DNA from: Candidatus Woesearchaeota archaeon
Lineage (GTDB): Archaea; Nanobdellota; Nanobdellia; Woesearchaeales; UBA10216
DNA length: 64,000 nucleotides
Assembly: GCA_016192905.1 (NCBI GenBank)
Contig: JACPTG010000004.1
Span: 173,734-237,733 of the forward strand
Direction of reading: 5' to 3'
In this document: piece by piece, positions 27,805 through 51,006 of the stretch
Numbering within the stretch: the first letter of the stretch is position 1
Layout of the letters: each line of letters opens with the position of its first letter
The notes under the pieces: generated by a model
The model's input: only the letters and a program-made list of their open reading frames with translations
Databases searched by the model: none
What the model was told of the DNA's origin: nothing
Position numbers and translations under genes: made by a program

Positions 27805-27956
27805 CAGTACACGAAGCCAGACAGTACACATTGGCGACCTCCCGAAGGGGCTGCTGAAACCAAGGAAGGCACAGCCTGCTACTTGTTAACAGTTTTATAA
27901 GTGATTTCTGCGGATAGAGAACTAAAAAAACCTGTGCGAGCTGACTCTTCGTGAAC
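27805..27956. repeat. ~150-bp intergenic element bounded by imperfect inverted arms (cagtacacgaagccag … ctgactcttcgtgaacag); carries one copy of the dispersed GCTGACTCTTCGTGAAC motif
   Basis: Arms at 27808-27821 and 27939-27956. It also shares the ttaacagtttta and tagtagttg/gttggttg segments with the 29120-29233 intergenic region. Confidence 0.3.
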
Positions 27957-28391
27957 AGACGCCAACCTGTCCAAATCAGCCCTGGACATAACTGCAACAG
28001 TTCCAAACATCGCCTTCAGCCCCTGCCTAAGCGAGGACTTGTCGCAAACAGAGTCATGAAGGTGGGCTGCAACAACCCATTTCTCCTCAGGCTGCGAAAA
28101 AGGGTTGACAAAAACCAGGGTGGCCCTGCTGTCAACAAACGACTTCCACCTGTCAAGCAAAGCCTTAAAATTCTCCGCACTGTTGAAAGTGACAATGGTG
28201 CAGCCTGGCTCAAGCCTGGCCTGCCCAAGAGCAGGAGCAACAATGCAGGGTACAACCCTATCCTTATGCCTTACACTAATCCTGCTGCCCCTGACCTCCA
28301 TTGCCACAATGCTTTTCCTGACAGCATCCCTGTTCCTCAGATAGAGCGTGGCCCACTCAACCAGATATCCCTCCTGATTCATGAAGGCCAA
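27879..28391 (-). CDS. conserved hypothetical protein
   Basis: 170 aa. No motif recognised. Its C-terminal codons overlap the repeat arm, so the true stop is uncertain. Confidence 0.45.
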   Translation of the reverse strand: MAFMNQEGYLVEWATLYLRNRDAVRKSIVAMEVRGSRISVRHKDRVVPCIVAPALGQARLEPGCTIVTFNSAENFKALLDRWKSFVDSRATLVFVNPFSQPEEKWVVAAHLHDSVCDKSSLRQGLKAMFGTVAVMSRADLDRLASVHEESARTGFFSSLSAEITYKTVNK

Positions 28392-28639
28392 AAACCGGCC
28401 AGGAGGTATAAATAGTTTTTTCCTTCATCCAAACCAGTAGCTGTCTTCCATAATATCGTAAAAGTCATCCGGCTCAAGCTCGAAAAGCGAATGCATAAAT
28501 ACCACCTCCTTCTTTACTTAAAATGTACATGAAGTGGTTCTAACGCTATCTTAATTAAATAATTTATTTCTGTTTTCATATACAAATGGGCATTTTTTTC
28601 AATAAAGCTTAAATATATGTTCATTGTGACATCAAACTT

Positions 28640-29119
28640 ATGGAGGAAAACAAACAAAGGGAAAGCCCTGAAAAAAGGGAAATACGCGAATTGGACATCC
28701 GAATACTCAACATACTGCTTGAAGACTCAAGGCTGTCGTACAGGCAGCTGGCAAAAAAGGCAGGCGTGTCGGTCGCAACCGCCATGAACCACGTGAAAGG
28801 GCTTGAAAAAGAAGGGGTAATCAAGGGATATACAGCAACCGTGAACTATGACAGGCTTGGCTTTGACATTGACGTTATAGTCAGCGTCAAGGTCTCCAAG
28901 GGAAAACTCTTCGCGGTTGAAAACAGGATTGCGGCAATACCGAATGTAGTGGAAGTGTACGATGTAACAGGGGACTTTGACTGCGTTGTTGTGGCCAAAT
29001 TCAAAAACAGAAGGCTGCTAGACAATTTCCTTAAAAAGATACAGACATTTGAGTTTGTCGAAAGGACAAGCACAGTGATGATACTCAACACAATAAAAAA
29101 CAGCCAGATGAGGCTTTAG
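28640..29119 (+). CDS. Lrp/AsnC family transcriptional regulator
   Basis: 159 aa. HTH (LDIRILNILLEDSRLSYRQLAKKAGVSVATAMNHVKGLEKEGVI) plus a RAM domain. AT-rich TATA region upstream. Confidence 0.85.
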   Translation: MEENKQRESPEKREIRELDIRILNILLEDSRLSYRQLAKKAGVSVATAMNHVKGLEKEGVIKGYTATVNYDRLGFDIDVIVSVKVSKGKLFAVENRIAAIPNVVEVYDVTGDFDCVVVAKFKNRRLLDNFLKKIQTFEFVERTSTVMILNTIKNSQMRL

Positions 29120-29172
29120 TGGTTTGTGGTTAATTGTAGGTAGTTAGCATAATGTTTAATCTAATAGTAGTA

Positions 29173-29190
29173 GGCTGACTCTTCGTGAAC
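29173..29190. repeat. copy of dispersed motif GGCTGACTCTTCGTGAAC in a convergent intergenic region
   Basis: Exact 17-18-nt match to 27939-27956 and to the reverse complement of 50989-51006. Flanks partly similar to the 27805-27956 element. Confidence 0.4.
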
Positions 29191-29233
29191 GGCAACAAGG
29201 TGAACTGGACAAAGGAGTGAACAATTAACAGTT

Positions 29234-29689
29234 TTACTCCTTCCTGGGGTTAAGAAGCGAGTCAGCGTAGGCAACATAGCCGACTGTCCTGTCATAATAC
29301 TCCCTGATTGTCTCCATTGTGATAAGCAATATCCCGCTGTCTGTAATGGCTGTCATCGTAACATGCCTCCTGTACTCATTGCTTCTCCTGTACTCAGCCC
29401 TGCTTATCTTCTTAAGAGTCTGGTAAAAAATCACCATGTCAGTGATTTTCTCGTCGTTGAAGAGCTTTTTCACAAGCTCTGCCTTCAGCCCTGCATTAGA
29501 AGGAATCTCCTTTACCTTTTTCCTTTCCTTTGCCCTCTCAAGAAGGGCGTCAATGGCAAGGGAAATCCCGCTGATAAGCCTGTCAATAATGCTCTTTATA
29601 ACATCAACTGTCCTCGTGTACTTCAGGCTTACGTACAACAGGTGGTCAGCCCTTTTCAGCTCTTCAGAAGCCTCTTCAATCAGAGTCAT
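29234..29689 (-). CDS. hypothetical alpha-helical protein
   Basis: 151 aa. Co-oriented with NAC and overlapping it by 14 nt. Confidence 0.45.
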   Translation of the reverse strand: MTLIEEASEELKRADHLLYVSLKYTRTVDVIKSIIDRLISGISLAIDALLERAKERKKVKEIPSNAGLKAELVKKLFNDEKITDMVIFYQTLKKISRAEYRRSNEYRRHVTMTAITDSGILLITMETIREYYDRTVGYVAYADSLLNPRKE

Positions 29690-30011
29690 TTTTCCTGTCT
29701 TTCAGCGAAATTATGGCAGCGGCAATGTCCCCGCCAGAGGCGTCCAGGGCCTTCCTGGCCACATCCCCTGTAACCCCTGCCTGCGATGAAACCAGCTGAA
29801 CGTCATCCTCTGAAACCGAAGACCTCTCAACAACGTTCCCAACAACCTGAAAGGTGTCCTGGCCCATCATGTTAACCTTTGTAACCGAGGGGCTGGAAAT
29901 TACGATATCCTTCCCGGCAGACCTGATTATAACCTCAGAAGCAGGAATATCCTCGCTGCGGATGCCCATCCTCCGCATCGCAGCCTTGACAGCCTTATCA
30001 TCCATCCTCAT
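29676..30011 (-). CDS. nac: nascent polypeptide-associated complex protein (NAC alpha, with UBA-like C-terminus)
   Basis: 111 aa. NAC domain (…KVNMMGQDTFQVVGNV…) and a UBA-like tail (VQLVSSQAGVTGDVARKALDASGGDIAAAI). Confidence 0.85.
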   Translation of the reverse strand: MRMDDKAVKAAMRRMGIRSEDIPASEVIIRSAGKDIVISSPSVTKVNMMGQDTFQVVGNVVERSSVSEDDVQLVSSQAGVTGDVARKALDASGGDIAAAIISLKDRKNDSD

Positions 30012-30013
30012 GA

Positions 30014-30172
30014 CTAACCTACCGCATGCAGAACTATCTCGATGACCATCACAATGGCAGCAAGAAGGATGACATGGCCTGGCTGGAACTCAATCTTGCT
30101 CTTGTACTCGTCAAAGTACCTGACAATGCCACCCATAGAGCTGGGCATCTGAACCTTGTCGTCCCTTGCCAT
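30014..30172 (-). CDS. preprotein translocase subunit Sec61beta (SecG)
   Basis: From the internal Met: MARDDKVQMPSSMGGIVRYFDEYKSKIEFQPGHVILLAAIVMVIEIVLH is the archaeal Sec-beta signature plus a TM. Confidence 0.8.
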   Translation of the reverse strand: MARDDKVQMPSSMGGIVRYFDEYKSKIEFQPGHVILLAAIVMVIEIVLHAVG

Positions 30173-30225
30173 AGCGTTTAGGGTTGGGAAGGTAAGTATA
30201 AAAAGGTTATTGCTCACAAACAATC

Positions 30226-30426
30226 CTACTTTGGGAGATGTAAACCCTTCATCTTGCCCTTAAAGCCTAACCAGAGATAAATGACGGCAAGAAAAAATCC
30301 TATGAATACAGCAAGCAGAAGCCAGAGAACCAGCAGCTCTCCACGCAGGCCAAGGATTGTAAAGCTTCCAAACCGCCTCTCATAAGATGTTAAGCCAGCA
30401 TAGCTTACTGCAACGGCAGCCAACAC
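30226..30426 (-). CDS. small membrane protein (hypothetical)
   Basis: 66 aa with two hydrophobic helices. Abuts the upstream ORF. Confidence 0.3.
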   Translation of the reverse strand: MLAAVAVSYAGLTSYERRFGSFTILGLRGELLVLWLLLAVFIGFFLAVIYLWLGFKGKMKGLHLPK

Positions 30427-30783
30427 TATAATGCCTCCTGCAATAGCTTTACTGCCTGGCTTGAAGGGGTTTGCCGATGATTCATATCCCTTTGCCAGGA
30501 CATAGGAAACAAAGTCATGTTATCAGATATCCAGCCGTAGCCAGGATAAAACCTGTTGTGGGAACTCAAAGGTGAAACAATACATGATGAGAAAAGGATT
30601 TTAGGACTGGGATTAACCAGCCTGATTCCCCTAATACTGCCCAAATCAACATACCTGCCATTCCTTCCTGTTGTTTGGCTGAAGGCATCTGGCCACAGAA
30701 AAATCCTTTTCCCCTCCAAAAAGGGCTGTTTGTTCTTAAAAGGAAATTCAGGAAGCTCAACATCAGGCTTGTCCTTCACCATT
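30426..30783 (-). CDS. hypothetical protein
   Basis: Start chosen at internal MVKDKPDVEL, after the atpD stop. No motif recognised. Confidence 0.3.
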
Positions 30784-30786
30784 TTG

Positions 30787-31410
30787 TTACGCATGCGCCC
30801 GCTTGATGTGCTTGAGCCTTGCGAAGTTCTCCCTCTCCATCTCCTCAAGCCTGAGCCTTACGTAGGAAGCTGATGCCTCAAGCCTTGGAATGGTGATTTT
30901 CTCAAGCGCATTAACCTTCCTCTTGGTCTTCTCAATCTCCTGCAGCAGCCTCCTCAATGCGGTTTCGTGCTCTGCCGCCTCCAGAACCTTCTCAACAAGC
31001 TTCTCGTAGGCAAGCGCTGCCTCGTCAATCTTAATAGAGCCGGAAAGGTAGCCAAAGCCCCTGGTGAAAATGCGCTTCTGCACAGCGCCCTTCTTTATGC
31101 TGGGCACCAGAACGCCCATCACGTTCTTGGCCTCAAGCTGGATAACCGGCTTGTCCTTAACAGCCAGCGCTACAGACTTAACAGCCAAATCAGAGTCAAG
31201 CGCCCTGGTGATATTCATCTTCCCAAGCGCATGCCTGTACTCCTCCACAAGCTCAGAGCGAACATTCCTGGCCTTTTCAAGTGCCTTGAAGAACTCAATA
31301 ATAAGGCCGTCACGCTTCTTCTTAAGCATGCTATGGCCAGACCTTGCCAGCTTAATCTTCTTCCTGAGAAGAAGCAGCTCGCTTCTATTTGGAGTTACGT
31401 TCTGGGACAT
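30787..31410 (-). CDS. atpD: A1AO (V-type) ATP synthase subunit D
   Basis: 207 aa. Coiled-coil subunit with the pattern typical of subunit D (…[25 protein letters not shown]…). Confidence 0.9.
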
Positions 31411-34357
31411 TCTTGTAGTACTTCTTCCTCAGCTCAGGGCTTATCCTGACAAGCTCAGCCTCAGGCAGGGCTCCCAAAAGAGCCCAAGCAACCCTAAGCG
31501 TATCCTCCTGGACAGACCTGTTCTCATTCCTGGCCTGCCTGACGAACACGTCCTCAAAGGAGGCTGCGAACTTCAAAAGGCGGCGGTCCCTCTCAGCAAG
31601 CGACTCCTCGCCGACAATAGCAGCCAGGCCCCTGAGGTCGCGGCCCTCAGCATAGGCTGCGTACAGCTGGTCTGAAACCTGCTTGTGGTCCTCCCTTGTC
31701 TTGCCCTGGCCGATGCCAAGGTTCATCAGCCTTGACAGGGATGGCAAAACATCAATCGGAGGGTAAATGTTCTTCCGGTGAAGCTCCCTGCTCAGGACAA
31801 TCTGGCCCTCGGTAATGTACCCTGTCAGGTCAGGAATCGGATGGGTGATGTCATCACCAATCATGGTCAAAATCGGAATCTGCGTAACAGAGCCCTTCTT
31901 TCCCTTGACAATCCCGGCCCGTTCATACAGCGAAGCGAGGTCAGTGTACATATAGCCGGGGTAGCCCCTCCTCCCGGGAATCTCCTCCCTGGCCGCGCCA
32001 ATCTCACGAAGTGATTCACAATTTGATATTATTAAGCCATTTCCAACCAAGAATTTTCCTGTTTCTGGAATGGTGACATCAAAAACAAACAAGTCTTTTG
32101 GTTCAGTTACTTTAATGTCTGTGATTTCGTCCAAAATGAATTCATCATTTGCATGTTTCTTTAACTCTTTCAGGATTTCATCATTTTCTGCAACGAGTTG
32201 AGAGAACTTTTCCATGCATTTTACAAGTTGCACTTTACTAATTCTCTTAAAGCCCCGTTCAACTTCAGACAACTGGCCGTTACTGGAAATTTGAGTTTGT
32301 TTTATTCCATATTTATGCCTCAATGCCCTTATTAATGTTCCGCAAACTCTCGGCGCATATTCAAATTCAGCGCTCTCTAAAGCATTATCCTTTACCTTCT
32401 CTAATTTATGTCTTTTATGCGGGTGTGATGCGCCAACTTTTTCAACAAACAAGTTAACATACCTTTTGCCTCTTATGATTATGTCAAACACATTACTCTC
32501 TCCATAAGTGCCTGTAGAGTGCCTATCAACAATGATAGAAGCTATTCCAAGTCTCCTTAAAAGCTGTTGGAGCCTTTTGATAACTTTTTCATTCACAGAA
32601 GTATATTGAATGACCCTTCTATTGACAATGCAGCTGCCATCGCCATCAAAGTAGCCTCTCAAAAATGCAGAAATCAAGTTTTCAGGCAATGAGAACAATT
32701 TCTTAAATTCCTTATCTTTCAAACCAAAGAAAGTTGCTATGTCGCAGTAAGCCTTATTATTAATTCTGCATATACTTACTCCATCTTGACTCTTGAAATC
32801 TGTAATCTGGATGTTGGGGAAAATTGTTGTAATCTTTTTCTTGTATATTTTTCTCAAATCAGAACTTGTATTTGAGAAATCCACGCGATAGATGTGGCTA
32901 TTCTCATTTCTTATCAATGAGCCATCAGAAGCAACTAGCCCTAGCAAGTAAAGTAAGTCGTCGTTTGCGTATGCCGTCGCTATTTTCAATCTATTGCCGC
33001 CAACATGCGATATGGCTGAAATTGCCTTCTCTATTGGCAACTCAGGACATATTTTAATCAATGCTCGAATCTCTTTAACATTCAAGAAACTTTCAGAATC
33101 TGTTAGCCTTGAATAATTAATGCCCGATTCTTTACATGCTTCCTTCAGTGAACCATACAGTTTTTTCAGTTTTTGTTTGCTGGTTTCCCTGACTAACTTA
33201 TCAAAGAAAACAATTGTGTTTTCATTTAATGCATCTATTATGGAAGGAATAGCCGTATTCACATTTATTTTTGATGTAATTGCGACTCTATCACCTTTCT
33301 TTAATTGGCCTGCAGGCGCCATTCTTAGTCCAAGAATCGTGTCTGTCAGTATCCTATGATTTGGCGTCAAGGTTAATTTGTTTCCTGAGCGAGTTGATAG
33401 TTCTATCATTTGCATTGAAGCTGGAAGCTTTTGAACTCGGGCAATCTGTTTAATGGCATCATTATTACCGTCCCATGTTAGCGCTTTTTCTTCCTTATCC
33501 CTAATATCAACATCAGAACCTCTTGTTTGACTTTCAACAAATTCTTTAATTGTTGTTATTCTTCCATCACCTAAAAACATCTCAGTTTCTCCAGCGACGC
33601 AGTAGTTCGTCATATCAGTCAATATTACCAGCACATGCATGTCCTTCTCATACGCAAAATACTCTGCTGCTGTAAGCGCCATTCTTGGAGTTATAAGCCT
33701 CTCCACAGCAGGGTCATCTGCCAGGTTGAGGAATACGAGAGACCTCTTAAGCGCGCCAGTGTTCTCGAAATCAGTAATAAAGCGCTGCGCTTCCTCATTG
33801 GTAATGCCCATTGCGGCAAAGATGACGACAAAGCCAGCCTCTTTGCCCAGAACCCTTGCCTGCCTTGCAATCTGAAGGGCAATGTCGTTGTGCGGCAGGC
33901 CAGAGCCTGAGAAAACAGGCAGCTTCTGCCCCCTGACAAGCGTATTCATCAGGTCAATGGTTGAAATACCTGTCTGGATGAAGTCCTCAGGGCCTGCCCT
34001 GGCCACCGGGTTAATGGCAGCCCCGGTAATGTCAAGCTTATCCTCAGGAATAATTTCAGGGCCGTTGTCAATGGGCTTTCCAGCGCCGCTAAGAATCCTT
34101 CCAAGCATGTCCGGGGAAACAGGCAGCCTGATGTTTTCGCCAAGGAACCTTACGCGGGCATCCCTGTCCAGGCCAGAAGTGCCCTCGAAAACCTGGACTA
34201 CGACTATATCATCACTTGTATCAAGAACCTGGCCTGTCTTTAATTCACCTGAAGGCGTGGCAATCCTTACCAGGTCATTATAGCCAACAGGGTCTGTCTT
34301 CCTTACAAAGACAAGCGGGCCTGCAATCCGTGAAACAGTCTTATACTCCTTTTCCAT
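31385..34357 (-). CDS. atpB: A1AO (V-type) ATP synthase subunit B, interrupted by an intein
   Basis: The N-extein ends …ILTDMTNY. The C-extein begins [36 protein letters not shown]. The exteins sum to ~464 aa. Start taken at MEKEYKTV. Confidence 0.9.
32021..33601 (-). mobile_element. intein in ATP synthase subunit B with LAGLIDADG endonuclease domain (527 aa)
   Basis: Starts [22 protein letters not shown] blocks [14 protein letters not shown] and [11 protein letters not shown]. Ends [11 protein letters not shown] with +1 Cys. In frame. Confidence 0.85.
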
Positions 34358-36074
34358 CCCTAAACTCCCTCTCCATGTCAGCCACAATCCCCTTGAGGAA
34401 TGGCTCGTAATCCTTCTCAAACTTCACATCGCCAATCCTGTCCTTTGCCTTAATCTCCAGAATCCTCTGCGCCTTCCCGCCTGATTCAAGGGCAGCGTAC
34501 GCAAGGTCAGCATACTTCAGGACAGTCTTCATTATGAGATAGGTTTTCTTAGGCTGCGAATACGTGTCAACAGGGTGGAATGCGTTCTGCTGCAGCAGGA
34601 ACTCACGGGCCATCCTCGCTATCCTCAGCGTAATCCGCTCACGCTCAGGCAGGGCATCAGAGCCAATAAGCTGGACAATCTCAAGCAGCCTGTCCTCCTC
34701 CTGAAGCACGGCCATAAGCCTGTCAACACAATTTCTCCAATCAGCAGCAACGTTCTTCGCAAACCAGGGCTCAAGGATGTCTGCGTACAGCGAGTAGGAA
34801 GTAAGCCAGTTTATTGAAGGGAAATGCCTGCGCTGGGAGAGCTTTGCATCCAAAGCCCAGAATACCTTAACAACCCTAAGGGTGCTTTGAGTTACAGGTT
34901 CTGAAAAATCCCCGCCTGGCGGCGAAACAGCGCCTATGACAGAAACAGAGCCTTCCTTTCCAGACAGCGCGACAACCCTGCCAGCCCTTTCGTAAAACTC
35001 CGCAAGCCTTGTTGAAAGGTATGAAGGGTAGCCCTCCTCACCAGGCATCTCCTGAAGCCTTGAAGAGATTTCCCTCATGGCCTCAGCCCACCTTGAAGTT
35101 GAGTCAGCCATAAGGGCAACGCTATAACCCATGTCCCTGTAATACTCAGCGATTGTAACTCCTGTGTAAATTGAAGCCTCCCTGGCGGCAACAGGCATGT
35201 TTGAAGTGTTCGCGATAAGCACAGTCCTGTTCATAAGCGGCTTATCAGTCCGCGGGTCAACCAGCTTAGGGAACTCCTCCAAGACCTCAGTCATCTCATT
35301 GCCCCGCTCGCCGCAGCCTACATAGACTACGACTTCTGCATCGGCCCACTTGGCCAAGGCCTGCTGAGTCACCGTTTTTCCCGACCCGAATGGCCCCGGG
35401 ATAGCAGCCACTCCTCCCTTGGAAAGCGGAAACAGCGCATCAAAAACCCTCTGGCCGGTAATCAGGGGAAGGTTGGGAATAAGCTTTTTAGAGGAAGGCC
35501 TGGGTCTCCTCACAGGCCACTGCTGCATAAGCGTAATTTTCGCGCCATTCTCCAAAGTGCAAACCTCGTCCTCAACGGTGAACGAGCCCTCTCTGATATC
35601 CTTCGCCTTTCCTGCGGAAATGTCTGCAGGGGCAGGGAACCTGTGTTCTGTGTTAAGCTCCTGGACAGTCCCGATAATCATTCCCGGAGAAACCAAATCG
35701 CCTTTTTTTACAGCAGGCTTAAACTCCCACTTCTTCCTGCGGTCCAAGCCAGGGGCAGTGATGCCGCGGGATATGAAATCTCCACGCTGCCTCCTAAGCT
35801 CTGCAAGCGGCCTCTGGATGCCATCATAAACAGAGTTAAGAAGCCCGGGGCCAAGCTCAACAGAAAGCGGAAGGCCTGTAGTCTCAACAACCTCGCCAGG
35901 CTTCAGGCCTGAAGTGTCCTCATAAACCTGGATTGTCGTGCGGTCATCATTAATCTGGATAACCTCACCCATAAGCTTCTCCCTGCCCACGCGAACAACG
36001 TCGTACATCCTGGCGCTGAGCCCCTTCGCAACGACCACAGGGCCTGAAATCTGGTAAAGCCTTGCCATTTTCAA
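34341..36074 (-). CDS. atpA: A1AO (V-type) ATP synthase catalytic subunit A (no intein)
   Basis: 577 aa. GPFGSGKT Walker A; …[22 protein letters not shown]…. Confidence 0.92.
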
Positions 36075-36349
36075 AGTTCTATGCCAATAGACCCCCTTAT
36101 CAGCCGGGCCATATCCTCCCTCCTGTCACTCGTTGACAGCATAACAAAAAGCGGGTTAATGGAATCTTCAAAAAATTTGCGGTCATCCTCCCCAAAAGCA
36201 GAAACAATGGACTCGTCAACAATGACAACCCCCACCTTCTCCTTTGGGATTGACCTAAGCTCGCCAGCCTTGGAGTAGTTAAATGTCTTCAGGCCAACCA
36301 ACTCAAACCCAAGCGTAAACTCAGGGCTACCAACAGCGACAAGATCCAT
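36071..36349 (-). CDS. atpF: A1AO ATP synthase subunit F
   Basis: Start at internal [20 protein letters not shown]. Length and position are typical of subunit F. Confidence 0.78.
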
Positions 36350-36350
36350 G

Positions 36351-37914: not shown

Positions 37915-38142
37915 TCAACCACCCTGAGCAAGACCCAAGATCATAATGGCAACCACAAGACCGAATATGACAAGCGTCTCAGGAATGACAGTCATCAAAA
38001 GGCCCTTTCCAAAGAACTCGTCCTTCTCAGCCATGGCGCCAACAGCTGCAGCCCCAATCTCCTTCTCTGCGAGCGCAGCGCCAATGGCACTCAAGCCAAT
38101 GGCCAGCCCGGCACCAATGGCAACCAAACCAGTCTCAACCAT
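37915..38142 (-). CDS. atpK: A1AO ATP synthase proteolipid subunit K (c)
   Basis: 75 aa, Gly/Ala-rich two-helix hairpin, with the ion-binding Glu in helix 2 (VIPETLVIFGL). Confidence 0.85.
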   Translation of the reverse strand: MVETGLVAIGAGLAIGLSAIGAALAEKEIGAAAVGAMAEKDEFFGKGLLMTVIPETLVIFGLVVAIMILGLAQGG

Positions 38143-41462: not shown

Positions 41463-41655
41463 TCATCCCAGGTCTTCGTCATACCCTGCCATGAAAGCCT
41501 CTTCCTGCGGGCTGAGCTCATCATCCTCAAGCATCTGCTCTGCCCTGCCTGCCTCGTAAATGTCCTGCTCGGAGTCTTCCATTGCGCATCACCTGTCAAG
41601 GTGTACGCAAGCTTAATATATACTTAACCACTATAGAATATATGGCATATAAACT

Positions 41656-42594: not shown

Positions 42595-42636
42595 ATAAAG
42601 TCAGCATACCAGGCCTTTGTTTCAAATCAAAATTTT

Positions 42637-43323
42637 TCAGAATAGCCTGAAACCCTTCTCCTGCACTTCCTCAAATCCGGCGCCGGTGATTTCATACACC
42701 AGTTCCCTCTGCGGAATGTGCCTGTGCCTCTGAAGTATGGCCAGCCTCTTGCTTGAGTGAAGCTGCCTAAGCTCTATCAGGCACTTGCTGCTGTACGTTA
42801 TAATGTCCCCGCCAACCATCCTTATCCCTTTCTTGCCTTCAAAGTCAGAATAAACCTGATTTGTGACTATAACCGGTATTGCCTTTGTACGCGCAAGCCC
42901 GACCAAAGCCGCAACCTGCCTGCCCAGCTCCCTGTTAAGCTCAGAGTTATCCGAAGTCCTCTGCGCCCTGTACAGGGAGGTTATTGTATCAACCACCACG
43001 AGCCCAACCTTCTCAGTCGCCAGGCTACCCAGCTTCTCCAGGCATTTCTTCTGCTCATCGAAACTTGCAGGGCGGAGAAAGAGTATCCTTTCCATCACTG
43101 AATTGTCATTGCCTGCCAGCTGACGCAGCCTTGTCACCGAGAGCCCGCCTTCTGTGTCCACAAAAATAGCCTTCCTGCCCTGGCGCGCTGAATTGATGCA
43201 GGCAAGAAGGCAGGCAGTTGTCTTTCCAGTACCGGCCGGCCCATAGATTGTAGTGACAGCATCGCTTTCATACCCTCCCTCAAGCAGCCTGTCAAGAACA
43301 GCAGTGCCTGTCCCGAGCTTTTC
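42637..43323 (-). CDS. radB: DNA repair/recombination protein RadB
   Basis: Start at MEKLGTGTAVLDRLLEGG. Walker A is GPAGTGKT. About 230 aa, the size of RadB. Confidence 0.8.
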   Translation of the reverse strand, partial: EKLGTGTAVLDRLLEGGYESDAVTTIYGPAGTGKTTACLLACINSARQGRKAIFVDTEGGLSVTRLRQLAGNDNSVMERILFLRPASFDEQKKCLEKLGSLATEKVGLVVVDTITSLYRAQRTSDNSELNRELGRQVAALVGLARTKAIPVIVTNQVYSDFEGKKGIRMVGGDIITYSSKCLIELRQLHSSKRLAILQRHRHIPQRELVYEITGAGFEEVQEKGFRLF

Positions 43324-43405
43324 CATAGATTGCCGTGCTTTCACGGTGTTTTTAAAGTGTTTGCACAAGAATTTAGCAATAGCAGAACTCGCAGTTCCTT
43401 AACCG

Positions 43406-43834
43406 TCATCGCTTTTTTGCGTGGATATGCCTCTCATACGCCTTCTTCGTAAGCGAATCAGCCTCTGAATTCTCCTCCCGTGGAATCCACTGGAATTTTA
43501 CATTCTTCCCTTCAAGCATGCGCCTGATGATGGGAGCATACTTCCTTGCAGTCTCTGAAATGAGCTTGTACTCGCCGGCCATCTGCCTGGCAACCAGCTG
43601 GCTGTCCCCCCTGATAGTGATATCTTTTTCCCCGGGATAGCTCTTCAGGACAAAATCAACAGCATGCAGAATGCCGTTGTATTCGGCAACGTTGTTTGTC
43701 ATGCCCTTCCCCTCACCCACAACGCCTTGCCCCTCCCCAAGCTTTTTGCCAGCCCTATAAACAACAAAGCCGTAGGTTGCAACGCCGCCGGGGTTGATTG
43801 GCGCGCAAAGGCCGTCAAAGAAAATCTCAATCAT
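43406..43834 (-). CDS. rnhA: ribonuclease HI (type 1 RNase H)
   Basis: Start at MIEIFFDGLC. Motifs DG…NNVAEYNGILHAVDFVL…IRGDSQLVARQ…IPREENSEADSL carry the DEDD catalytic residues. Confidence 0.78.
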   Translation of the reverse strand: MIEIFFDGLCAPINPGGVATYGFVVYRAGKKLGEGQGVVGEGKGMTNNVAEYNGILHAVDFVLKSYPGEKDITIRGDSQLVARQMAGEYKLISETARKYAPIIRRMLEGKNVKFQWIPREENSEADSLTKKAYERHIHAKKR

Positions 43835-44360
43835 CAGCGCCAAACACCTCCACATCCCTGTAAACAGGGCCCTTTGCGGCCTGAAGAATGCTCTGCTTAA
43901 GGCTGAAGCTGCCAACCTGGAATTCAAGCCTGTTTACGGATATTCTTTTCATGACCTCCAGAAAATGTGCCCTGTCACTAATATACTTTGCCCTGGCGAG
44001 GGTTATGTGCGGGCTGAACCCGTGGTCATCAGGGTATTCGCTGCCGATGCAATCATCAACTGACCTGTGCAAATCAAGGAAACCCTTTTCTGGACTAACC
44101 CCCACCCAGACAACCCTCATGTTCTTTTCAGAGGGGAAAACGCCGAGGTCTGAAAGCGAGGCTGAAAACCTTCTGAAACCCGCTTTCCGCAGTTCCGCCC
44201 TGACCCATTCAGCCTTATCCTGCGTCACCTCGCCGAGAAACTTCAGGGTAAGGTGAAAATTTTTTGCAAGGCTAAGCTTTTCCTCTGGAAGAAGGGACTG
44301 AATCCTTGACAACTCTTCCAAAACCGGCCCCGGAAGATCAACCGCGATAAACAATCTCAT
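43827..44360 (-). CDS. thpR: RNA 2',3'-cyclic phosphodiesterase (2H phosphoesterase, LigT/ThpR)
   Basis: Start at MRLFIAVDLPG. Two H-x-T-x motifs are present (HLTLKFLG, HITLAR). Confidence 0.8.
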   Translation of the reverse strand: MRLFIAVDLPGPVLEELSRIQSLLPEEKLSLAKNFHLTLKFLGEVTQDKAEWVRAELRKAGFRRFSASLSDLGVFPSEKNMRVVWVGVSPEKGFLDLHRSVDDCIGSEYPDDHGFSPHITLARAKYISDRAHFLEVMKRISVNRLEFQVGSFSLKQSILQAAKGPVYRDVEVFGADD

Positions 44361-44412
44361 ATGTGCTGCCAGTTTTAGCAATTCTTAAATACTTGCCTAT
44401 GTTTAACTGCCC

Positions 44413-44622
44413 ATGGCAAGAAAATTTACAGTAATCATCGAAAAGGACAGGAAAGGATTGTTAGTTTCTGAGGTTCTTGGGCTGCCCGGGTGCCATACCC
44501 AGGGTAAAGACATGGAACAGTTAATGGAAAGGACCAAGGAGGCAATACAGGCTTACCTTGAATCCGAAGAGGATATTGAGATATCAGAAGAATTTGTGGG
44601 TGTAAAGCAAATAGTGGTTTAA
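44413..44622 (+). CDS. hicB: HicB-family antitoxin (UPF0150)
   Basis: 69 aa. …VIIEKDRKGLLVSEVLGLPGCHTQGKDMEQLMERTKEAIQAYLE is the canonical HicB N-domain. Confidence 0.7.
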   Translation: MARKFTVIIEKDRKGLLVSEVLGLPGCHTQGKDMEQLMERTKEAIQAYLESEEDIEISEEFVGVKQIVV

Positions 44623-44709
44623 TGCCCAAGCTGCCAATTCTCACAGGAAGATGGAAGGAAAACTGTGGTTCCCTGCCATGCACAGGAAGACCTAGAGCTT
44701 ATAAAATGA
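44622..44709 (+). pseudogene. hicA: hicA toxin remnant (internally deleted and frameshifted)
   Basis: Frame 1 reads MPKLPILTGR (the HicA N-terminus). The +1 frame reads EDGRKTVVPCHAQEDLELIK* (the HicA mid/C-terminus). The central dsRBD-like segment is missing. Confidence 0.5.
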
Positions 44710-44742
44710 GAAGGTCAGCTGCAATGAAAAGCCTCGAAGAGA

Positions 44743-45087
44743 CTACTTCTCCTCCTCACCGAAGTCCTCACTGTCCTCAGTGTCCTCTTCAGACTCGTCC
44801 CCTGGCTCATCAGATTCCTCAACTTCCTCGTCTGATTCCCCTTCAGACTCCTCTTCCTTTTTGGACTCTGACTTTCCAATGACCTCAGCGAAGCCGACGC
44901 TCTTAAGAACCTTTGTCACGCGAATCCTGACCCTGTCACCCTTGTGAGTGTCAGGAACAAAAAGCACAAACCCCTCCTTCTTGGCAATGCCATCGCCCTT
45001 CTCACCGACAGCCTCAATAACAGTCTCCATCTCGTCGCCCACCTTGACCGGCGTAGGCTTTGGCCTGAAACCCTTTTCTGAATTCAT
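44743..45087 (-). CDS. TRAM-domain protein with acidic C-terminal tail
   Basis: 114 aa. PVKVGDEMETVIEAVGEKGDGIAKKEGFVLFVPDTHKGDRVRIRVTKV is a TRAM OB-fold, followed by an E/D-rich tail. Confidence 0.8.
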   Translation of the reverse strand: MNSEKGFRPKPTPVKVGDEMETVIEAVGEKGDGIAKKEGFVLFVPDTHKGDRVRIRVTKVLKSVGFAEVIGKSESKKEEESEGESDEEVEESDEPGDESEEDTEDSEDFGEEEK

Positions 45088-45203
45088 GTACGTTTCCTCC
45101 GAACAAATTTTTACAATACAGATTTGAAATTCATTATATAAATGTTTCTACTCCCCAGGCGCATTCGGCAATGTTTTTATAGCCGCCACGCTGACACAGC
45201 GCC

Positions 45204-45758
45204 ATGTCTGACTTTGACATAGGGTATGCCTATTACCTGCATGACAAGCAGATAGAGGCTGAGGACGCCAGGGCGAACGGCACTATCCTCATAAGGACAG
45301 GGGTAATTTTAATCCTCTTTTCCATGTCAATCGCAGCACTGGCCCGGAAGCCCGAGGCATTGCTGCTTTCAGCGCTGGGCTTCGCGGCCATAATGATGGG
45401 CGTCCAGAGGCATGCGGCAACGAAGAAGCTGCATGAGGGCGAGATTAAACGGAATCAGAGAATGAACATTGAGCTGCATCACACTCCTATCAAGCCCCAT
45501 CAACTTATTGCAAAGCCTTCGATACTGAGGGAAAGGCTGGCAAGGAAATTCTCAGAAAGCCTGTCTGAACACCATGCAGAAAAGGAGGCCATAACAGAAA
45601 TAATCAGGCAGAACTCGGGAAGTGACATAAACTCGGTCTACAAAATATACAGGCTCCAGGGCGGCAAGGCCGACCCGGAGCACTTTGTAAAGCTGCTGCA
45701 CAGCTTAAAGAGGCACGGCCATGTGCAGGTCAGGCACCTAAACGTCCCTGATTCCTGA
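45204..45758 (+). CDS. hypothetical membrane protein (2 TM)
   Basis: 184 aa. No motif recognised. Confidence 0.4.
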   Translation: MSDFDIGYAYYLHDKQIEAEDARANGTILIRTGVILILFSMSIAALARKPEALLLSALGFAAIMMGVQRHAATKKLHEGEIKRNQRMNIELHHTPIKPHQLIAKPSILRERLARKFSESLSEHHAEKEAITEIIRQNSGSDINSVYKIYRLQGGKADPEHFVKLLHSLKRHGHVQVRHLNVPDS

Positions 45759-46736
45759 CTCGTCCACAAAAAACATCGCCTCAGCCTCAGGAAGATTCGG
45801 GCTGTCAACAAGCTTTGCCACCCGGCTGCCCTTCTTTCCCCTCCTGAGATACATCCTGTATGTGCTGTTATGGCTGACAACATGTCCGCCAATGGCCTCA
45901 GTGGGGTCCCCAAAAAAGACATCAGGCCTGGCCATCACCTGATTCGTGACATAGACGCACAGATTGTAGGTGGTGGCAAGCCGCATCAGGGAATGCATGT
46001 GCTTGTTAAGCTTCTGCTGCCTCTCAGCAAGAGTGCCCCTGCCAATGAACTCTGCCCTGAAATGCGCGGTAAGGGAGTCCACCACCACGAGCTTTACATT
46101 CAGCCCCTTCTTGATAAGGTCCTCAACCTTCTCGGCAAGGAGCATCTGATGGTCTGAGTTGAAAGCCCGCGCAACCCTGATGTTCCTAAGGACCTTATCA
46201 GGGTCCATTCCTGGAAGGATGAGCTGCTTTATCCTCTCTGGCCTGAATGTTGACTCGGTGTCTATGAAGACTGCAACGTTCTCAGGGTTGTCCCTCTGGA
46301 CATTAACGCAGAGAGTGTGGGCCAGCTGTGACTTGCCTGCGCCATAAGCCCCGAACGCCTCTGTAATCGCGCCTGACTCAAAGCCGCCGCCCAGAAGATT
46401 ATTCAGCGCGCTGCTTTTTGTCGTAATCTTGTAAATTCCCTCCCTCCTCTTCAATACCTCGTCAGCGCTTTCAAAGCCCATCTCCATCTTTTCCCTGGCA
46501 GACTGGATTATCCTCCTTGCAGCCTGCTCGGTCACGCCAGCCATGTCCACAATCTCCCCAGGGGTTGCGACTGCAACAGAAAGAAGCGTGTCAAATCCTG
46601 AAGCAGCAAGCTTCTCAGCAGTGGCAGCGCCCACGCCAGGCAGCTGGGTAAGCTCAGCGCCCCTGAAAGCCAGCCCTGCAACCGGCTCATCAACTTCCTC
46701 AGATTCCATAACCAGCTCCGCTCTTTTTTTCATCAC
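45738..46736 (-). CDS. radA: DNA repair and recombination protein RadA
   Basis: 332 aa. HhH N-domain (LPGVGAATAEKL). Walker A GAYGAGKSQL. …VDSLTAHFRAEF…. Confidence 0.92.
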   Translation of the reverse strand: MMKKRAELVMESEEVDEPVAGLAFRGAELTQLPGVGAATAEKLAASGFDTLLSVAVATPGEIVDMAGVTEQAARRIIQSAREKMEMGFESADEVLKRREGIYKITTKSSALNNLLGGGFESGAITEAFGAYGAGKSQLAHTLCVNVQRDNPENVAVFIDTESTFRPERIKQLILPGMDPDKVLRNIRVARAFNSDHQMLLAEKVEDLIKKGLNVKLVVVDSLTAHFRAEFIGRGTLAERQQKLNKHMHSLMRLATTYNLCVYVTNQVMARPDVFFGDPTEAIGGHVVSHNSTYRMYLRRGKKGSRVAKLVDSPNLPEAEAMFFVDESGIRDV

Positions 46737-46759
46737 GCATCACCATTTTTCAAAAGAGG

Positions 46760-47038
46760 TCAAATGACCTCCTCCATAACAATCTCCTCCTGCGCACCAT
46801 CATCCCTGCTTACAAGGTAGTCAAACGCCTTGGTAAGCACAAGCACTGCCTTGGGAAGGTCGTTAACACGCAGCGAGCCCGTGGACTTCCACGTGTCCTT
46901 GTCCTTATAGCTGCGCTCAACCTGCACAGAGGCATAGCTTCCCTTTTCTGTCACATTCCGCCAGATTACCGCAGAAACAGGGCCTGCCCTGAACTTCTTC
47001 TCAGGCCTTTGCCTAGCCAACTTATTAACGATTTCCAT
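46760..47038 (-). CDS. hypothetical small protein
   Basis: 92 aa. The promoter GCAAAGTATTTAAA and an SD (GGAGGAGG) lie upstream. Confidence 0.4.
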   Translation of the reverse strand: MEIVNKLARQRPEKKFRAGPVSAVIWRNVTEKGSYASVQVERSYKDKDTWKSTGSLRVNDLPKAVLVLTKAFDYLVSRDDGAQEEIVMEEVI

Positions 47039-47261
47039 CTTACCTCCTCCTTCCTGTTCGGGTCTTGTTTCAACCTCTCAGCTAACGCCTTGAGGCGGAG
47101 TAAGAAGACTATCAGCATGCTGGGTTTAAATACTTTGCCCGGGCCTGTCCAGTGTCCAGTGGGTTATTGGCCATATGGTTCTGTATAGGGAGTTATGCTG
47201 ATTACCGTAATTATAACGAAAAAAATGAAGAATAAAGTTTGAATAAATAACCCCCAGGATA

Positions 47262-47285
47262 ACCCCCACCCAGGTGGGAGGCCTC
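47262..47285 (-). terminator. stem-loop (CCCACC-cagg-GGUGGG) followed on the minus strand by a T-rich tract, downstream of rpa
   Basis: rc reads cccacctgggtggg-ggttatcctggggg-ttatttattcaaactttattcttcatttttttcg. Confidence 0.35.
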
Positions 47286-47297
47286 AAAAGACCTGCA

Positions 47298-48314
47298 TCA
47301 GCCCCTCTGCTCCCTCAGCTTCTCAACTTCCTGCTGCAGCCTGGCAATCTCATCATCAGGCTCAGGGTTAACCAGAACGCTGCTGGCAACAAGCTCAACC
47401 CTGTTGAACATGTCATTTTTTGCAGATTTTCCGAGAATCTTCACGCTGGCTCCCAAAAGCTCATTCCTCACATTCTCAAAAGCCTCAGGAGAGTCCCTGA
47501 AGGCAAGTATTCCCTCATTAGGAAGCCCAAGAAGCTTCTGGGCCTGCTCCCTGAAGAAAACAGCCCTCACACTTTCAGTGCCATCATCCAGATAAGCGTT
47601 AAGCACGTAAGAGTAGGAGGGGCTTACAGCGCCATGAACCTCACACACAGCCGAGCCATCATTCATGCGCGCCCTCTTGCCGCAATGGCAAACCTCAAAA
47701 AACCTCGGCTCGAAAACCTGGACAATGGTAGCAAGAACTTCAACCTGGCCCTCGCCTCCCTGAAGTTCTGCGAGATTCTTCCGCGAAGCAGACTGGACAG
47801 CAGTAACTGGCACGTTCACTGACTCACCCTCAGGATTAATCAGCAGCTTGCTCCTGTCATTAAGATGGACCTCGTTAAAAGAGCCGCGCTGCCTGACATA
47901 GCCTCCCTTTACACGCAACACATCACCAGCCTTCAGCTTAGAGGCGAAATCAGCCATCTCATTCCAAAGCACAACCCTCACCTGGCCGGTCTCATCAGCT
48001 ATCTGGACCGAGGCCACCCTGCCCTCCCTGCCTGAAGACTGGAAAGACCTTGCCTCGTAAACAGCAACAACCCTGCCAAGAACCTCCACATCCCTCAGCC
48101 CTGCCAGGATGTTCCTAATCTCCATCCTTCCTGAAACCGGCTCAAAAAGCCTCACGCCCAACTCGTTGGCAATAATATGGGCCGCGCCCTCCCTGCTCAC
48201 CAGGCCGGAGAGCATTGAAATCCTTTCATCAACCCGCCTGCCTATCTCAGCCTCATCAAGGCCTGACTTCTCCCTTATTCTTGCAACTATATCCTCATAA
48301 GGCACCCTAAGCAT
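47298..48314 (-). CDS. rpa: replication protein A (archaeal SSB/RPA with OB folds and Zn ribbon)
   Basis: 338 aa. Two OB-fold regions and the Zn ribbon CHCGKRARMNDGSAVCEVHG. Confidence 0.78.
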   Translation of the reverse strand: MLRVPYEDIVARIREKSGLDEAEIGRRVDERISMLSGLVSREGAAHIIANELGVRLFEPVSGRMEIRNILAGLRDVEVLGRVVAVYEARSFQSSGREGRVASVQIADETGQVRVVLWNEMADFASKLKAGDVLRVKGGYVRQRGSFNEVHLNDRSKLLINPEGESVNVPVTAVQSASRKNLAELQGGEGQVEVLATIVQVFEPRFFEVCHCGKRARMNDGSAVCEVHGAVSPSYSYVLNAYLDDGTESVRAVFFREQAQKLLGLPNEGILAFRDSPEAFENVRNELLGASVKILGKSAKNDMFNRVELVASSVLVNPEPDDEIARLQQEVEKLREQRG

Positions 48315-48409
48315 GTCACCGGGCTTGGCTGCGAACTATAAATAAGTTTTGCTTGCGGTTTTTACTGGCGCAAAACTATTTAAAGGCTCTTGGCTGATTC
48401 TGATGCGGC

Positions 48410-49225
48410 ATGGGAAAAAGAGGTGAATCGTCGCTTTCCTATTTTGTATCCACAAATTTTGTCAAAATCGCGGTCAGCGCAATGATAGTTGTCGTGCTGC
48501 TCCTGCTTGTCCGGGCCTACGCCAACAACAGCTCCACAGAAAGGCAATTCCTGTCAAGGGACACCGCCATGCTCATAGATGCCATGCTCGCAGCTCCCGG
48601 AGATGTCGAGTATGCCTACGTCCTGCCAAGCCGCAGGTTTGACTACAAGCTGGGCGGAGGCATTGTGAGTGTCCAGGACAAGCGTGCAGGCCTTTCATCT
48701 GAGTATTTCTTTGCCGAGAGCGAGAGGGTTGCCTTTGTGCCGCTGGAAACAGAAAGCCCGCCCAGGGAGTTAAGGTTTATCAAGAAAGGCAAGGAACTGC
48801 GGGTCAACGCAGTCTACGACGACAGCGAAAAGGAAGCATTGAAGGCTTTCGACCAGCTTGTAAGCTTCCTCAGGACAAATTCAAAGAAATCATACACTTT
48901 CAAGTGCCGCGAAACCTTCGCATTCAACGCTGCAATCGGCTACTACATTTCATTCTCAAACGGAATTGCCAGCCTGATCCACCAGTCATCAACAGGAGAA
49001 AGCCAGGTGGCGTCAGACAGGGTGCCTGACCTGGATGTCTACAACTCCGCTGCAAAGGGCTTCATACTGGCCTCAGGATGGGAGCCTGACAGCACCGCAG
49101 CCATAAAAATGAATGGAGCCCTCAGCCTTGTGCACGAATCCGGAACGTGGCATTACTCAAGCAGCAGCATTGAGGTCAACCAGCTTCCAGCATGCGAACT
49201 CGAATCACTGGCAAGAAAGCAGTAG
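48410..49225 (+). CDS. secreted/surface protein, first gene of pilin-like cluster
   Basis: 271 aa. MGKRGESSLSYFVSTNFVKIAVSAMIVVVLLLLV: a KRG motif followed by a hydrophobic helix. Confidence 0.5.
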   Translation: MGKRGESSLSYFVSTNFVKIAVSAMIVVVLLLLVRAYANNSSTERQFLSRDTAMLIDAMLAAPGDVEYAYVLPSRRFDYKLGGGIVSVQDKRAGLSSEYFFAESERVAFVPLETESPPRELRFIKKGKELRVNAVYDDSEKEALKAFDQLVSFLRTNSKKSYTFKCRETFAFNAAIGYYISFSNGIASLIHQSSTGESQVASDRVPDLDVYNSAAKGFILASGWEPDSTAAIKMNGALSLVHESGTWHYSSSSIEVNQLPACELESLARKQ

Positions 49226-49638
49226 TAAGCGAGGAGCTGGCACAGATTGCCAGAACCGCTTTCCTGATTTACGTAGTGGTAGTAATCATAGCAGTCATGT
49301 ACCTGAACTCTGTAAAAATACTTGACACCGGCGATGCTGAAGCAAGAATCCTGGCCAACAGGCTCGCATACGAGGCAGGAGGCACTGACAAGGACACGGG
49401 CCGCGTGTACGTCGGGACACTGGACAACTCCATTGATTCAAAAACCCTGGAAAAACGAATGGACTTCGTCATCCAAAGAAGGATTGGAGGAAAGATTTCA
49501 ACTGGAACAAAAGCGGTTTACTACAACGAATTCTGGTACAACAACCTGAAGCCAAGGGTTGGGTACGATGCAGTCCAGGGAAGCCAGGCCTTTTACGGGC
49601 ATAAAGGGGAAGTAGCCAGCTCAGAGGTAATAATATGA
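49192..49638 (+). CDS. pilin-like protein (start uncertain)
   Basis: …TGKKAVVSEELAQIARTAFLIYVVVVIIAV… then a small globular domain. Overlaps the previous gene by 34 nt if the ATG at 49192 is used. Confidence 0.4.
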   Translation: MRTRITGKKAVVSEELAQIARTAFLIYVVVVIIAVMYLNSVKILDTGDAEARILANRLAYEAGGTDKDTGRVYVGTLDNSIDSKTLEKRMDFVIQRRIGGKISTGTKAVYYNEFWYNNLKPRVGYDAVQGSQAFYGHKGEVASSEVII

Positions 49639-50153
49639 ACACCAGGGGAGACCTTCCAATCGGAATTTTCATCGCAGCATTAGTATTTACTTTTTCAGCC
49701 ATCACACTACTTCTTGCGGTCAACTTCCTGCCAGTGTTCGGAAGGCAAGGGCCAATAGTCTCAAGCGTTGGAAGCAGCCTGGCTGACTCAGAATACTACG
49801 CCTTCTCAATCAGCGCAGTCAACTTCCTACGGCTGGAAAAGGAGGGCTCAAGCATCGGCAGGAAAATGGATGAACTGGCACAGGCATGCAAGATAGGAGG
49901 AAGCGAGTGCGACGCACTTGCCGCAAAAATGGATGCTTATGCCGACGCCTACCTGAAGGCGTATGAGAAGAAATGCGTTGCAATCGAACTTCGGGAACCA
50001 ACAGGCGTCATGATATGGCAGGGAAGGCAGTCAGAGCACTGCCTCTTCGCAAGGTCTGCATTTGCAGGAGCCAAGTACAAGACTGAGATTCTAATCCCCA
50101 CAAGCGACCTGTCAACAGGCATCGTGTTCATCCAGAAAAGGGTGTTCGGATGA
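49635..50153 (+). CDS. pilin-like protein
   Basis: MNTRGDLPIGIFIAALVFTFSAITLLLAV: a class-III-signal-like TRG motif plus a hydrophobic stretch. 172 aa with 4 Cys. Confidence 0.5.
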   Translation: MNTRGDLPIGIFIAALVFTFSAITLLLAVNFLPVFGRQGPIVSSVGSSLADSEYYAFSISAVNFLRLEKEGSSIGRKMDELAQACKIGGSECDALAAKMDAYADAYLKAYEKKCVAIELREPTGVMIWQGRQSEHCLFARSAFAGAKYKTEILIPTSDLSTGIVFIQKRVFG

Positions 50154-50938
50154 GAGCACTGCATGGAAGGAAGGCTGACTTCATGGCCACTGTAACAACC
50201 TTTCTGGGCGTAAGCATCCTGGTATTCCTGCTGGGATTCCAGCTCGGCAGCTATTACCAGGTCGCAAAAGGGCTTAACATCGGCGACAAACAATTCACCC
50301 TTTTCTCAGCCTACAGCAGGGCAGAGGAAGCACTTTTCTACGTTGACGAATCCTCAGGCATTGCCCTTGAACAGGCGTCCTCTGAAGCAGCCGCAATGGG
50401 CGGAACCGCAAGCCCTGCCTGCGGGACAGCCAGCGGAATTGCGCTCTGGAAGGATGGCAAAAAGGAGTGCTACCCATCAACAGAAGACAACAGGGCAGCG
50501 CTTGCCCAGTCACTTACTCCACAGCTTTCCAAGTACCTGGCAGCCTACAAGGCGCTAAAGATACCTGCTGACTATTCCTACGAGTTCAAGGAGGGGAATA
50601 TCATTGGAATGGCAAAGCAGGATACAGCAATCAGCGGCGAACTGGCGAAGACAGATTCAAAAGACACATACTCATACAAGTTCAGGGCCTCCTTCAAGCA
50701 CCCGATGCCCTATTCAGATGAATATGACGCCCTCAAAGCGAAAGCCAGGCAGATTGCGTCATCATGCGAGGGAAAAAACGGGTTTTCAGGATGCATCAAA
50801 TCCTTTGACGGCCCAGCAGCAGGAGGACTTCAACTGGATGTAAACTGCCTGGGGCCTCCTGACGAAACAGAGAGGCTCGCGCTAATCTGCGCAAGAAATG
50901 GCAAAACAGAATACAGGTTCGGGCTCAGGCTGGAGTAA
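50150..50938 (+). CDS. pilin-like/secreted protein
   Basis: MRALHGRKADFMATVTTFLGVSILVFLLG. 262 aa with a Cys-containing ectodomain. Confidence 0.5.
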   Translation: MRALHGRKADFMATVTTFLGVSILVFLLGFQLGSYYQVAKGLNIGDKQFTLFSAYSRAEEALFYVDESSGIALEQASSEAAAMGGTASPACGTASGIALWKDGKKECYPSTEDNRAALAQSLTPQLSKYLAAYKALKIPADYSYEFKEGNIIGMAKQDTAISGELAKTDSKDTYSYKFRASFKHPMPYSDEYDALKAKARQIASSCEGKNGFSGCIKSFDGPAAGGLQLDVNCLGPPDETERLALICARNGKTEYRFGLRLE

Positions 50939-50988
50939 TTTAAGCTAAATTGACTAAAGTATTGCATTTGTACAGTATTCATTTGTAC

Positions 50989-51006
50989 CGTACACGAAGA
51001 GTCAGC
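50989..51006. repeat. copy (reverse orientation) of dispersed motif GGCTGACTCTTCGTG(T/A)AC between convergent pilin-like operons
   Basis: gtacacgaagagtcagcc is the reverse complement of ggctgactcttcgtgtac. It is flanked by internally repeated gtacaaatg. Confidence 0.4.

Follow-up and report, generated by a model that had tools for sequence, protein, structure and literature searches.

What is a sequence of 18 nt, GGCTGACTCTTCGTGAAC, doing at three places of one archaeal contig, each time where genes end? The stretch analysed here, called the window throughout, comprises 64,000 nt of Candidatus Woesearchaeota archaeon (assembly GCA_016192905.1, contig JACPTG010000004.1, positions 173,734 to 237,733 of the forward strand) and shows archaeal features, namely an archaeal RNase P RNA, a V-type ATPase (V-ATPase) operon, Sec61-beta and NAC. 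The original prediction placed the motif in spacers between convergent genes and offered three options: a bidirectional terminator family, a small RNA gene family or a miniature mobile element. In this study, we find that the 18-mer is not a unit in itself but the best-conserved 3′ end of a non-coding element of 165-175 nt. The three sites are probably decayed or rearranged fragments of this element, a lineage-specific, mosaic intergenic repeat of the type of miniature transposable elements with inverted repeats (MITEs) or bacterial interspersed mosaic elements (BIMEs). Of the three options, the miniature mobile element is the best fit, whereas the small RNA and the terminator are unsupported.

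With up to three mismatches allowed, the motif has three matches in the window and no further ones, against a chance expectation of 0.05, and none of 100 shuffles gave three matches. The third copy lies one base further along than had been proposed (50989-51006). Placement in a convergent spacer holds for sites 2 and 3, whereas the copy at site 1 overlaps the last codons of the open reading frame (ORF) 27879-28391(-). In the orientation of the element used from here on, which is the reverse complement of the predicted motif, the 18-mer reads GTWCACGAAGAGTCAGCC and sits just inside the 3′ inverted repeat. A search of one genome per species, for 185,579 species, returned 28 exact matches, 18 of which fall in contigs of a single metagenome-assembled genome (MAG), CAZDCW01; one of the remainder is in a contig labelled Iainarchaeum, and the others are single matches in unrelated bacteria and one unrelated archaeal MAG, at about chance level. 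Since one locus of this MAG (L024; sequences fetched for comparison carry L numbers, with positions after a colon) has a nucleotide identity of about 97% to window 43058-50865, the MAG belongs in effect to the window's species. A profile for nhmmer, made from 10 full copies (170 positions), picks up about 30 copies or fragments across 19 loci of the MAG, some 150 kb in all. In other collections, the 22-mer gave zero matches in the metagenomes of the Joint Genome Institute (JGI), the 18-mer gave zero in viral contigs, and blastn against plasmids and phages gave no match.

The complete element is bounded by terminal inverted repeats of 11-14 bp, GTAGCAGGCTG ... CAGCCTGCTAC, whose 11 pairs show pairing in 92% of cells; the fuller end consensus is (CTTAACnA)GTAGCAGGCTG ... 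CAGCCTGCTAC(TAGTTAAG), with CTTAAC..GTTAAG as a possible outward extension of the repeats. In the aligned MAG copies, the order from 5′ to 3′ is the inverted repeat GTAGCAGGCTGT, a CCC-(UUCG/UUUC)-GGG hairpin present in nearly all copies, GTGTAC...GGCTTCGTKYAC, TGCAATGTTCAC, a variable stretch, TTGTACAG...TTGTACC, the 18-mer, and a terminal TGCTAC that completes the 3′ inverted repeat. The conserved terminal 24-mer is GTWCACGAAGAGTCAGCCTGCTAC, and several GTTCAC/TGTAC boxes lie within the element. The outer ends read GTAG.../...CTAC in most copies (GTAG in 10/18 of the 5′ ends, ATAG or TTAG in the others; mostly CTAC or CTAT at the 3′ ends). Indels between copies are not multiples of three in length, as befits non-coding sequence, and the information content is 1.6-1.8 bits at the ends (1.5-1.8 bits when a few boxes are included), as against 0.7-1.1 bits in the interior.

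The element can be described as a module A (the 5′ half) joined to a module B (the 3′ part), with two accessory modules, T and U, often present. Module T is an AC-rich tail with the consensus TTAGTTAAGCAAAACTACAAACCACCAAC..., which stands behind a complete 3′ end or behind a 5′ half that is truncated; it is found at all three window sites and at L005, L012, L016, L021:217-250 and L025. An AC-rich tail as a general feature of gene ends was considered and rejected, as such tracts occur in the window solely beside pieces of the element. Module U is a linker, made of a T-run, TTTATCCGCAGAAA and then ACTnTTAAC, that bridges a 3′ end and the next 5′ repeat; examples are window site 1, L018:3950-4040 (with the linker itself at L018:3985-4024) and L030.

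The window itself holds fragments only (Table 1). Four pieces are recovered by the nhmmer profile, one of them a weak match around the 18-mer of site 1; the part of this match upstream of the 18-mer (to 27986, E = 0.0017) is probably spurious and lies on conserved coding sequence, since the orthologues conserve that part and stop where the 18-mer begins. No further copies occur in 9.4 kb extending the window leftwards.

Table 1. Pieces of the repeat in the window and the motifs they carry.
Feature	Positions	Strand	Remarks
18-mer GGCTGACTCTTCGTGAAC, site 1	27939-27956	+	One mismatch; first base A
18-mer GGCTGACTCTTCGTGAAC, site 2	29173-29190	+	Exact
18-mer GGCTGACTCTTCGTGAAC, site 3	50990-51007	-	One mismatch
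Module T, site 1	27762-27795	-	Adjoins stop codon of convergent oxidoreductase gene 27066-27761(+)
Module A, 3′ side truncated	27796-27882	-	nhmmer 27884-27796, profile positions 2-91, E = 1.3e-21; element proper from 27882
Inverted partial copy GGCTTCGTGTAC	27807-27818	-	
U linker: T7 run, TATCCGCAGAAATCAC, then TAAAACTGTTAAC	27883-27939	-	Also at L018:3985-4024 and L030; dodecamer confirmed
Dodecamer TAAAACTGTTAA	27886-27897 and 29225-29236		Exact at both
Solo 3′-end motif GTTCACGAAGAGTCAGC	27940-27956	-	17/18 bases; fused to end of gene 27879-28391(-)
Module T, site 2	29120-29164	-	Adjoins stop codon of Lrp/AsnC gene 28640-29119(+)
Module B fragment, site 2	29165-29217	-	Profile positions 117-169, E = 2e-9; holds the exact 18-mer
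TAAAACTGTTAATTGTTCAC	29218-29236	-	Upstream of the B fragment; overlaps TAA stop of gene 29234-29689(-)
Module B fragment, site 3	50959-51014	+	Profile positions 113-168, E = 1.8e-13; 18-mer plus terminal TGCTAC
Module T, site 3	51015-51046	+	Adjoins stop codon of convergent gene 51047-51718(-)

In the case of site 1, the details noticed originally are borne out, and their interpretation is not. The inverted partial copy is there, as are the dodecamer common to sites 1 and 2 (0.2 expected) and the adjoining G/T-rich stretches. The segment 27805-27956, which had been taken as a MITE-like or long-hairpin element, is a solo 3′-end motif followed by a linker and another copy's 5′ half. On the minus strand, the site consists of the gene end, the 17-mer, U, module A, T and the stop of the convergent gene. 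The segment is a junction of pieces and not a unit, and the arms that had been paired come from two different pieces; the same order of pieces is also present at L018:3950-4190. Module A opens here with GTAGCAGGCTGT and carries a CCCC-UUCG-GGG hairpin together with the GGCTTCGTGTAC block, the 'inverted arm' of the original prediction; the order of module A and tail is found again at L021:111-250. At site 2, the short segment upstream of the B fragment may correspond to a U-type dodecamer and the remnant of a CAATGTTCAC box, a weak assignment made by eye. The fragment at site 3 is 94.5% identical to L006:4490-4544.

The repeat at site 1 has left its mark on a protein. In gene 27879-28391(-), the solo motif has taken the place of the stop codon and of the last ~5 codons, and the ORF continues 21 residues past the end of its orthologues, through the motif and the linker (including the T7 run), ending at a TAG inside the next GTAGCAGG, that is, the 5′ inverted repeat of the following piece. 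The C-terminus of a conserved protein of 150 residues has thereby been rewritten by repeat-derived sequence at 27879-27956.

The distribution of the repeat among related genomes and contigs speaks in favour of mobility. Syntenic loci of relatives with about 65% amino-acid identity keep the gene order but show nothing of the element at sites 1 and 2; in place of the window's sites 2 and 1 they have additional genes, for a membrane protein of 150 residues and for VIT1. Closer still, the orthologue of gene 47298-48314(-) in the MAG is followed downstream by a full copy (L024:4219-4390), at a position where the window has 130 nt of unrelated sequence. As examples of recent duplication, loci L016 and L025 have 146 nt in common (module B, T and a second 14-mer) at 98.6% identity within unrelated flanks, and the copies of L030 and L018 are 94% identical. 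In the window's own population, breaks of short-read contigs fall within the repeat, with L001 starting at 27817 and L055 and L056 ending at 51011 and 51008, respectively; no strain variation was seen in that population, all Logan contigs being identical to the window. The last 19 nt of the Logan contigs L053 and L054, CTGTCTCTTATACACATCT, are the Nextera/Tn5 mosaic-end adapter, an assembly artefact.

A wider family sharing the repeat end was also considered. In relatives, AGCAGGCTGACT, which has the same 12-mer as the repeat end and then continues differently, lies between atpB and atpD; a metagenome scan for this variant gave that locus only, besides chance matches, and the idea was discarded. 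At that locus AGCAGGCTGACT is followed by tandem ACTGCGGCTCCGC units (L033:8187-8240; L035:8078-8110 and 8208-8262, the spacer between V-ATPase B and D). In the window the B and D genes overlap, without the spacer that holds AGCAGGCTGACT in the relatives.

Two of the three explanations offered at the outset would have the repeat act as RNA or on transcription. The blocks might be cis-acting or independently transcribed structured RNAs, such as stabilisers in 3′ untranslated regions (3′-UTRs) or small RNA genes, selected at each locus. In this regard, the conserved blocks persist at 63% overall identity, the tetraloop hairpin recurs in nearly all copies, 14/20 scored copies share the strand of their upstream gene, and in the terminal stem G-U pairs exceed A-C by 12 to 5; this excess and the hairpin are the only hints of RNA constraint, and weak ones. 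Other results speak against it. A full copy has no match in Rfam even at E <= 10, sites 1-2 give sub-threshold noise only, and a gathering-threshold scan of the whole window returns RNase P and one tRNA only. RNAalifold retains only the terminal stem, the small hairpin and, around the GTGTAC block, a short local helix, with a covariation term of about zero (+0.16 kcal/mol). When an explicit structure (terminal stem, hairpin and an internal stem GGCTTCGTKYAC x GTWCACGAAG) was tested, covariation and pairing equalled those of shuffled controls in every measure, with 172/500 and 169/500 shuffles reaching the observed values. The internal stem was rejected, its two central positions being mostly unpaired and without covariation, and both of its arms are better read as copies of the GTTCAC box. 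Folding z-scores (-1.4 and -0.5 for a full copy, -0.7 and -1.3 for 27805-27956, whose fold had been put forward as a check) lie within 1.4 standard deviations of shuffles on both strands. Because the structure tests stay at shuffle level, the complementarity is best explained as conserved inverted-repeat sequence and not as selection on a fold. Neither a consistent promoter nor oligo-T was found at the element ends, and copies lie in both orientations relative to their neighbours, so that we regard the structured-RNA explanation as unlikely. Anatomy also sets aside a C/D-box small RNA, a k-turn, a hammerhead, an integron attC, a Xer/dif site, a diversity-generating retroelement repeat and CRISPR: a C box, core motifs, a palindromic 28-mer, adenine-specific variation and regular spacing are all missing. 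A bidirectional terminator family common to convergent gene pairs would account for the three window sites, all at such pairs (with the copy at site 1 overlapping a gene end), for the 8/20 copies in convergent spacers, and for the T6-T7 run of the U linker directly after the 3′ end. However, archaeal transcription termination depends on oligo-T tracts, and runs of at least five T are absent from both strands at sites 2 and 3; the only T7 run is that of the linker at site 1, inside the extended ORF. A scan for terminators of bacterial type found no enrichment. All copies are intergenic, with an enrichment in convergent and tandem spacers (10/20 are in tandem and 2/20 in divergent ones); tolerated repeats usually show such a distribution, and it gives no special grounds for a role as terminator. 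We therefore hold the terminator to be highly improbable, and the family looks like a selfish or mosaic repeat, not like a new RNA gene or terminator.

As a mobile repeat, the element would have spread, or may still spread, as DNA through an enzyme recognising its conserved ends. Such an enzyme would account for the contrast between ends that are about 90% conserved and interiors of about 63% identity; this profile fits long-term propagation by end recognition and would also fit selection in place. A number of observations weigh against mobility. No consistent target-site duplication flanks ten full copies (TTATA stands on both sides only at L026), although the copies are old, and erosion could have removed short duplications. 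A search of about 300 kb (window, 19 MAG loci and flanks) turned up neither an autonomous partner nor a transposase. The polymorphism between strains is a block replacement, with unrelated spacers of 252 nt (L024:4178-4429, MAG) and 130 nt (47165-47294, window) right after the stop of gene 47298-48314(-) and conserved sequence on both sides, and not a clean pair of filled and empty sites. Outside the 18-mer, full copies have a median identity of 63%; for a MITE with recent activity this is low and, together with the conserved blocks, it could mean that each copy is under selection in place. Finally, as the MAG loci were fetched by exact 18-mer match, the invariance of the 18-mer is partly an effect of ascertainment; copies found by the profile only differ at 1-3 of the 24 terminal bases. 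A special case of the mobile repeat would be one like repetitive extragenic palindromes (REPs) and the REP doublets forming hairpins (REPINs) of bacteria, GTAG-tagged repeats which, like BIMEs, are mobilised by REP-associated tyrosine transposases (RAYTs) of the Y1 kind (PMC3733652, PMC3116915). Here, a Y1 (HUH) transposase of the RAYT or IS200/IS605 kind, present in single copy, would recognise the GTAG-tagged ends in their single-stranded form, and bacterial BIMEs would be the model for how ends and linkers come to form mosaics. The outer GTAG.../...CTAC is the tag that defines GTAG REPs (PMC3733652), the lack of target duplication is expected of Y1 transposition, the 12-14-mer occurs head-to-head, tail-to-tail and directly repeated with conserved linkers, the copies are mostly downstream of genes, and they have persisted long, with diverged spacers. 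On the other hand, the palindrome of 20-40 bp expected beside the tag is missing at the 3′ end and replaced at the 5′ end by stems of only 3-5 bp in shifting registers, and GTAG REPs are reported in bacterial phyla only (PMC3733652). Searches of the window and MAG loci (about 300 kb) by tblastn with Y1 queries, a weak test, gave nothing below E = 0.1, and no transposase is among the 25 most frequent Pfam/PHROG families listed for 106 MAG ORFs. The sole integrase match, a XerA-like recombinase gene (L011:6055-6888) 1.6 kb from one copy, is probably a housekeeping gene. A Y1-driven REPIN-like system thus appears improbable. There is likewise a small chance of a true archaeal counterpart of REPINs and BIMEs, in which vertically inherited, long-persisting GTAG-tagged repeats and linkers are served by a single-copy, possibly domesticated enzyme while the 24-mer and the GTTCAC boxes are selected in place, where they would act, e.g., as protein-binding sites or 3′-UTR determinants; if true, it would be the first such system described in archaea of the DPANN group.

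Some further features of the window and of its relatives were observed along the way. The public labels of the lineage disagree: CAZDCW01 is labelled Methanosarcinales, another MAG with a near-identical contig Iainarchaeum, and the window proteins Woesearchaeota; we therefore refer to the organism only as a groundwater archaeon of DPANN type. A protein at site 2 has the same sequence as one deposited under the name Candidatus Woesearchaeota archaeon, and over 3.2 kb the identity is 99.3% between L009 and L012, whose MAGs bear the labels Methanosarcinales and Candidatus Iainarchaeum. A second strain-variable block, window 44360-44743 versus L024:1303-1766, holds in the window a HicB-like antitoxin ORF (44413-44622, Pfam HicB_lk_antitox) and a short ORF, and in the MAG a different small ORF; a copy of the window version with 74% identity is present at L008:297-495. 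The V-ATPase B gene 31385-34420 contains an intein, its ORF having 1011 residues with LAGLIDADG-like sequence; the orthologues at L033, L035 and L036 have 457-460 residues and no intein, and that at L037 has one. The tRNA gene 20486-20574 scores 49.6 bits in Rfam, whereas ARAGORN assigns it no identity and calls an anticodon loop of four bases, 'ccca'; an intron is probably present. Another small repeat family, ATCCATAGTCCGCCCAAGGCTACTTTT, occupies 61193-63945 near HxlR-type regulator genes, with four copies of ~28-48 nt at spacings of 626, 1305 and 794 nt, two of them 94% identical over 48 nt.

In DPANN archaea, whose small genomes are known solely from metagenomes, the catalogue of dispersed repeats is poor. 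The family described here explains the assembly breaks in the window's population, marks spacers whose gene content differs from that of relatives, has altered the C-terminus of one protein, and provides a 24-nt marker for strain tracking in the lineage. If a dedicated enzyme binds the conserved ends, REPIN-like biology would extend to archaea; otherwise, the family is an ordinary, if unusually mosaic, selfish repeat.

The comparison with known systems places the element among small non-autonomous repeats. Like MITEs, it is short (~170 bp, against less than ~600 bp), non-coding and multi-copy, with terminal inverted repeats; it is intergenic in both orientations, has conserved ends and a diverged interior, and may vary in presence between close relatives. 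Unlike in MITEs, no target-site duplication was detected, and no parent insertion sequence with the same ends was found in the about 300 kb searched; its copies are unusually diverged (median 63%), and there are mosaics with extra modules and many one-ended fragments. With REP, REPIN and BIME sequences (PMC3733652, PMC3116915) it shares, besides the tag, the location downstream of genes and the absence of target duplication, the inverted short units, the less conserved spacers and the mosaics with defined linkers, whereas its unit beside the tag is non-palindromic, the element is longer, no RAYT was found in the about 300 kb searched and the host is an archaeon. BOX of Streptococcus pneumoniae and the enterobacterial repetitive intergenic consensus or intergenic repeat unit (ERIC/IRU) are likewise intergenic imperfect palindromes of 100-200 nt, and the modules A, B, T and U recall boxA-boxB-boxC, but there is no sequence relationship and no equivalent of their stable conserved RNA structures was found here. 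The Rickettsia palindromic elements (RPEs), which carry a CGTC tag (PMC3733652), are also old, diverged palindromic repeats of a small genome that add residues to proteins, as does the piece at site 1; RPEs typically lie in frame within genes, whereas here one fragment touches a gene, at its very end. We thus class the repeat with the small intergenic repeats that are non-autonomous or mosaic, as a new member specific to this lineage, and assign it to no named family.

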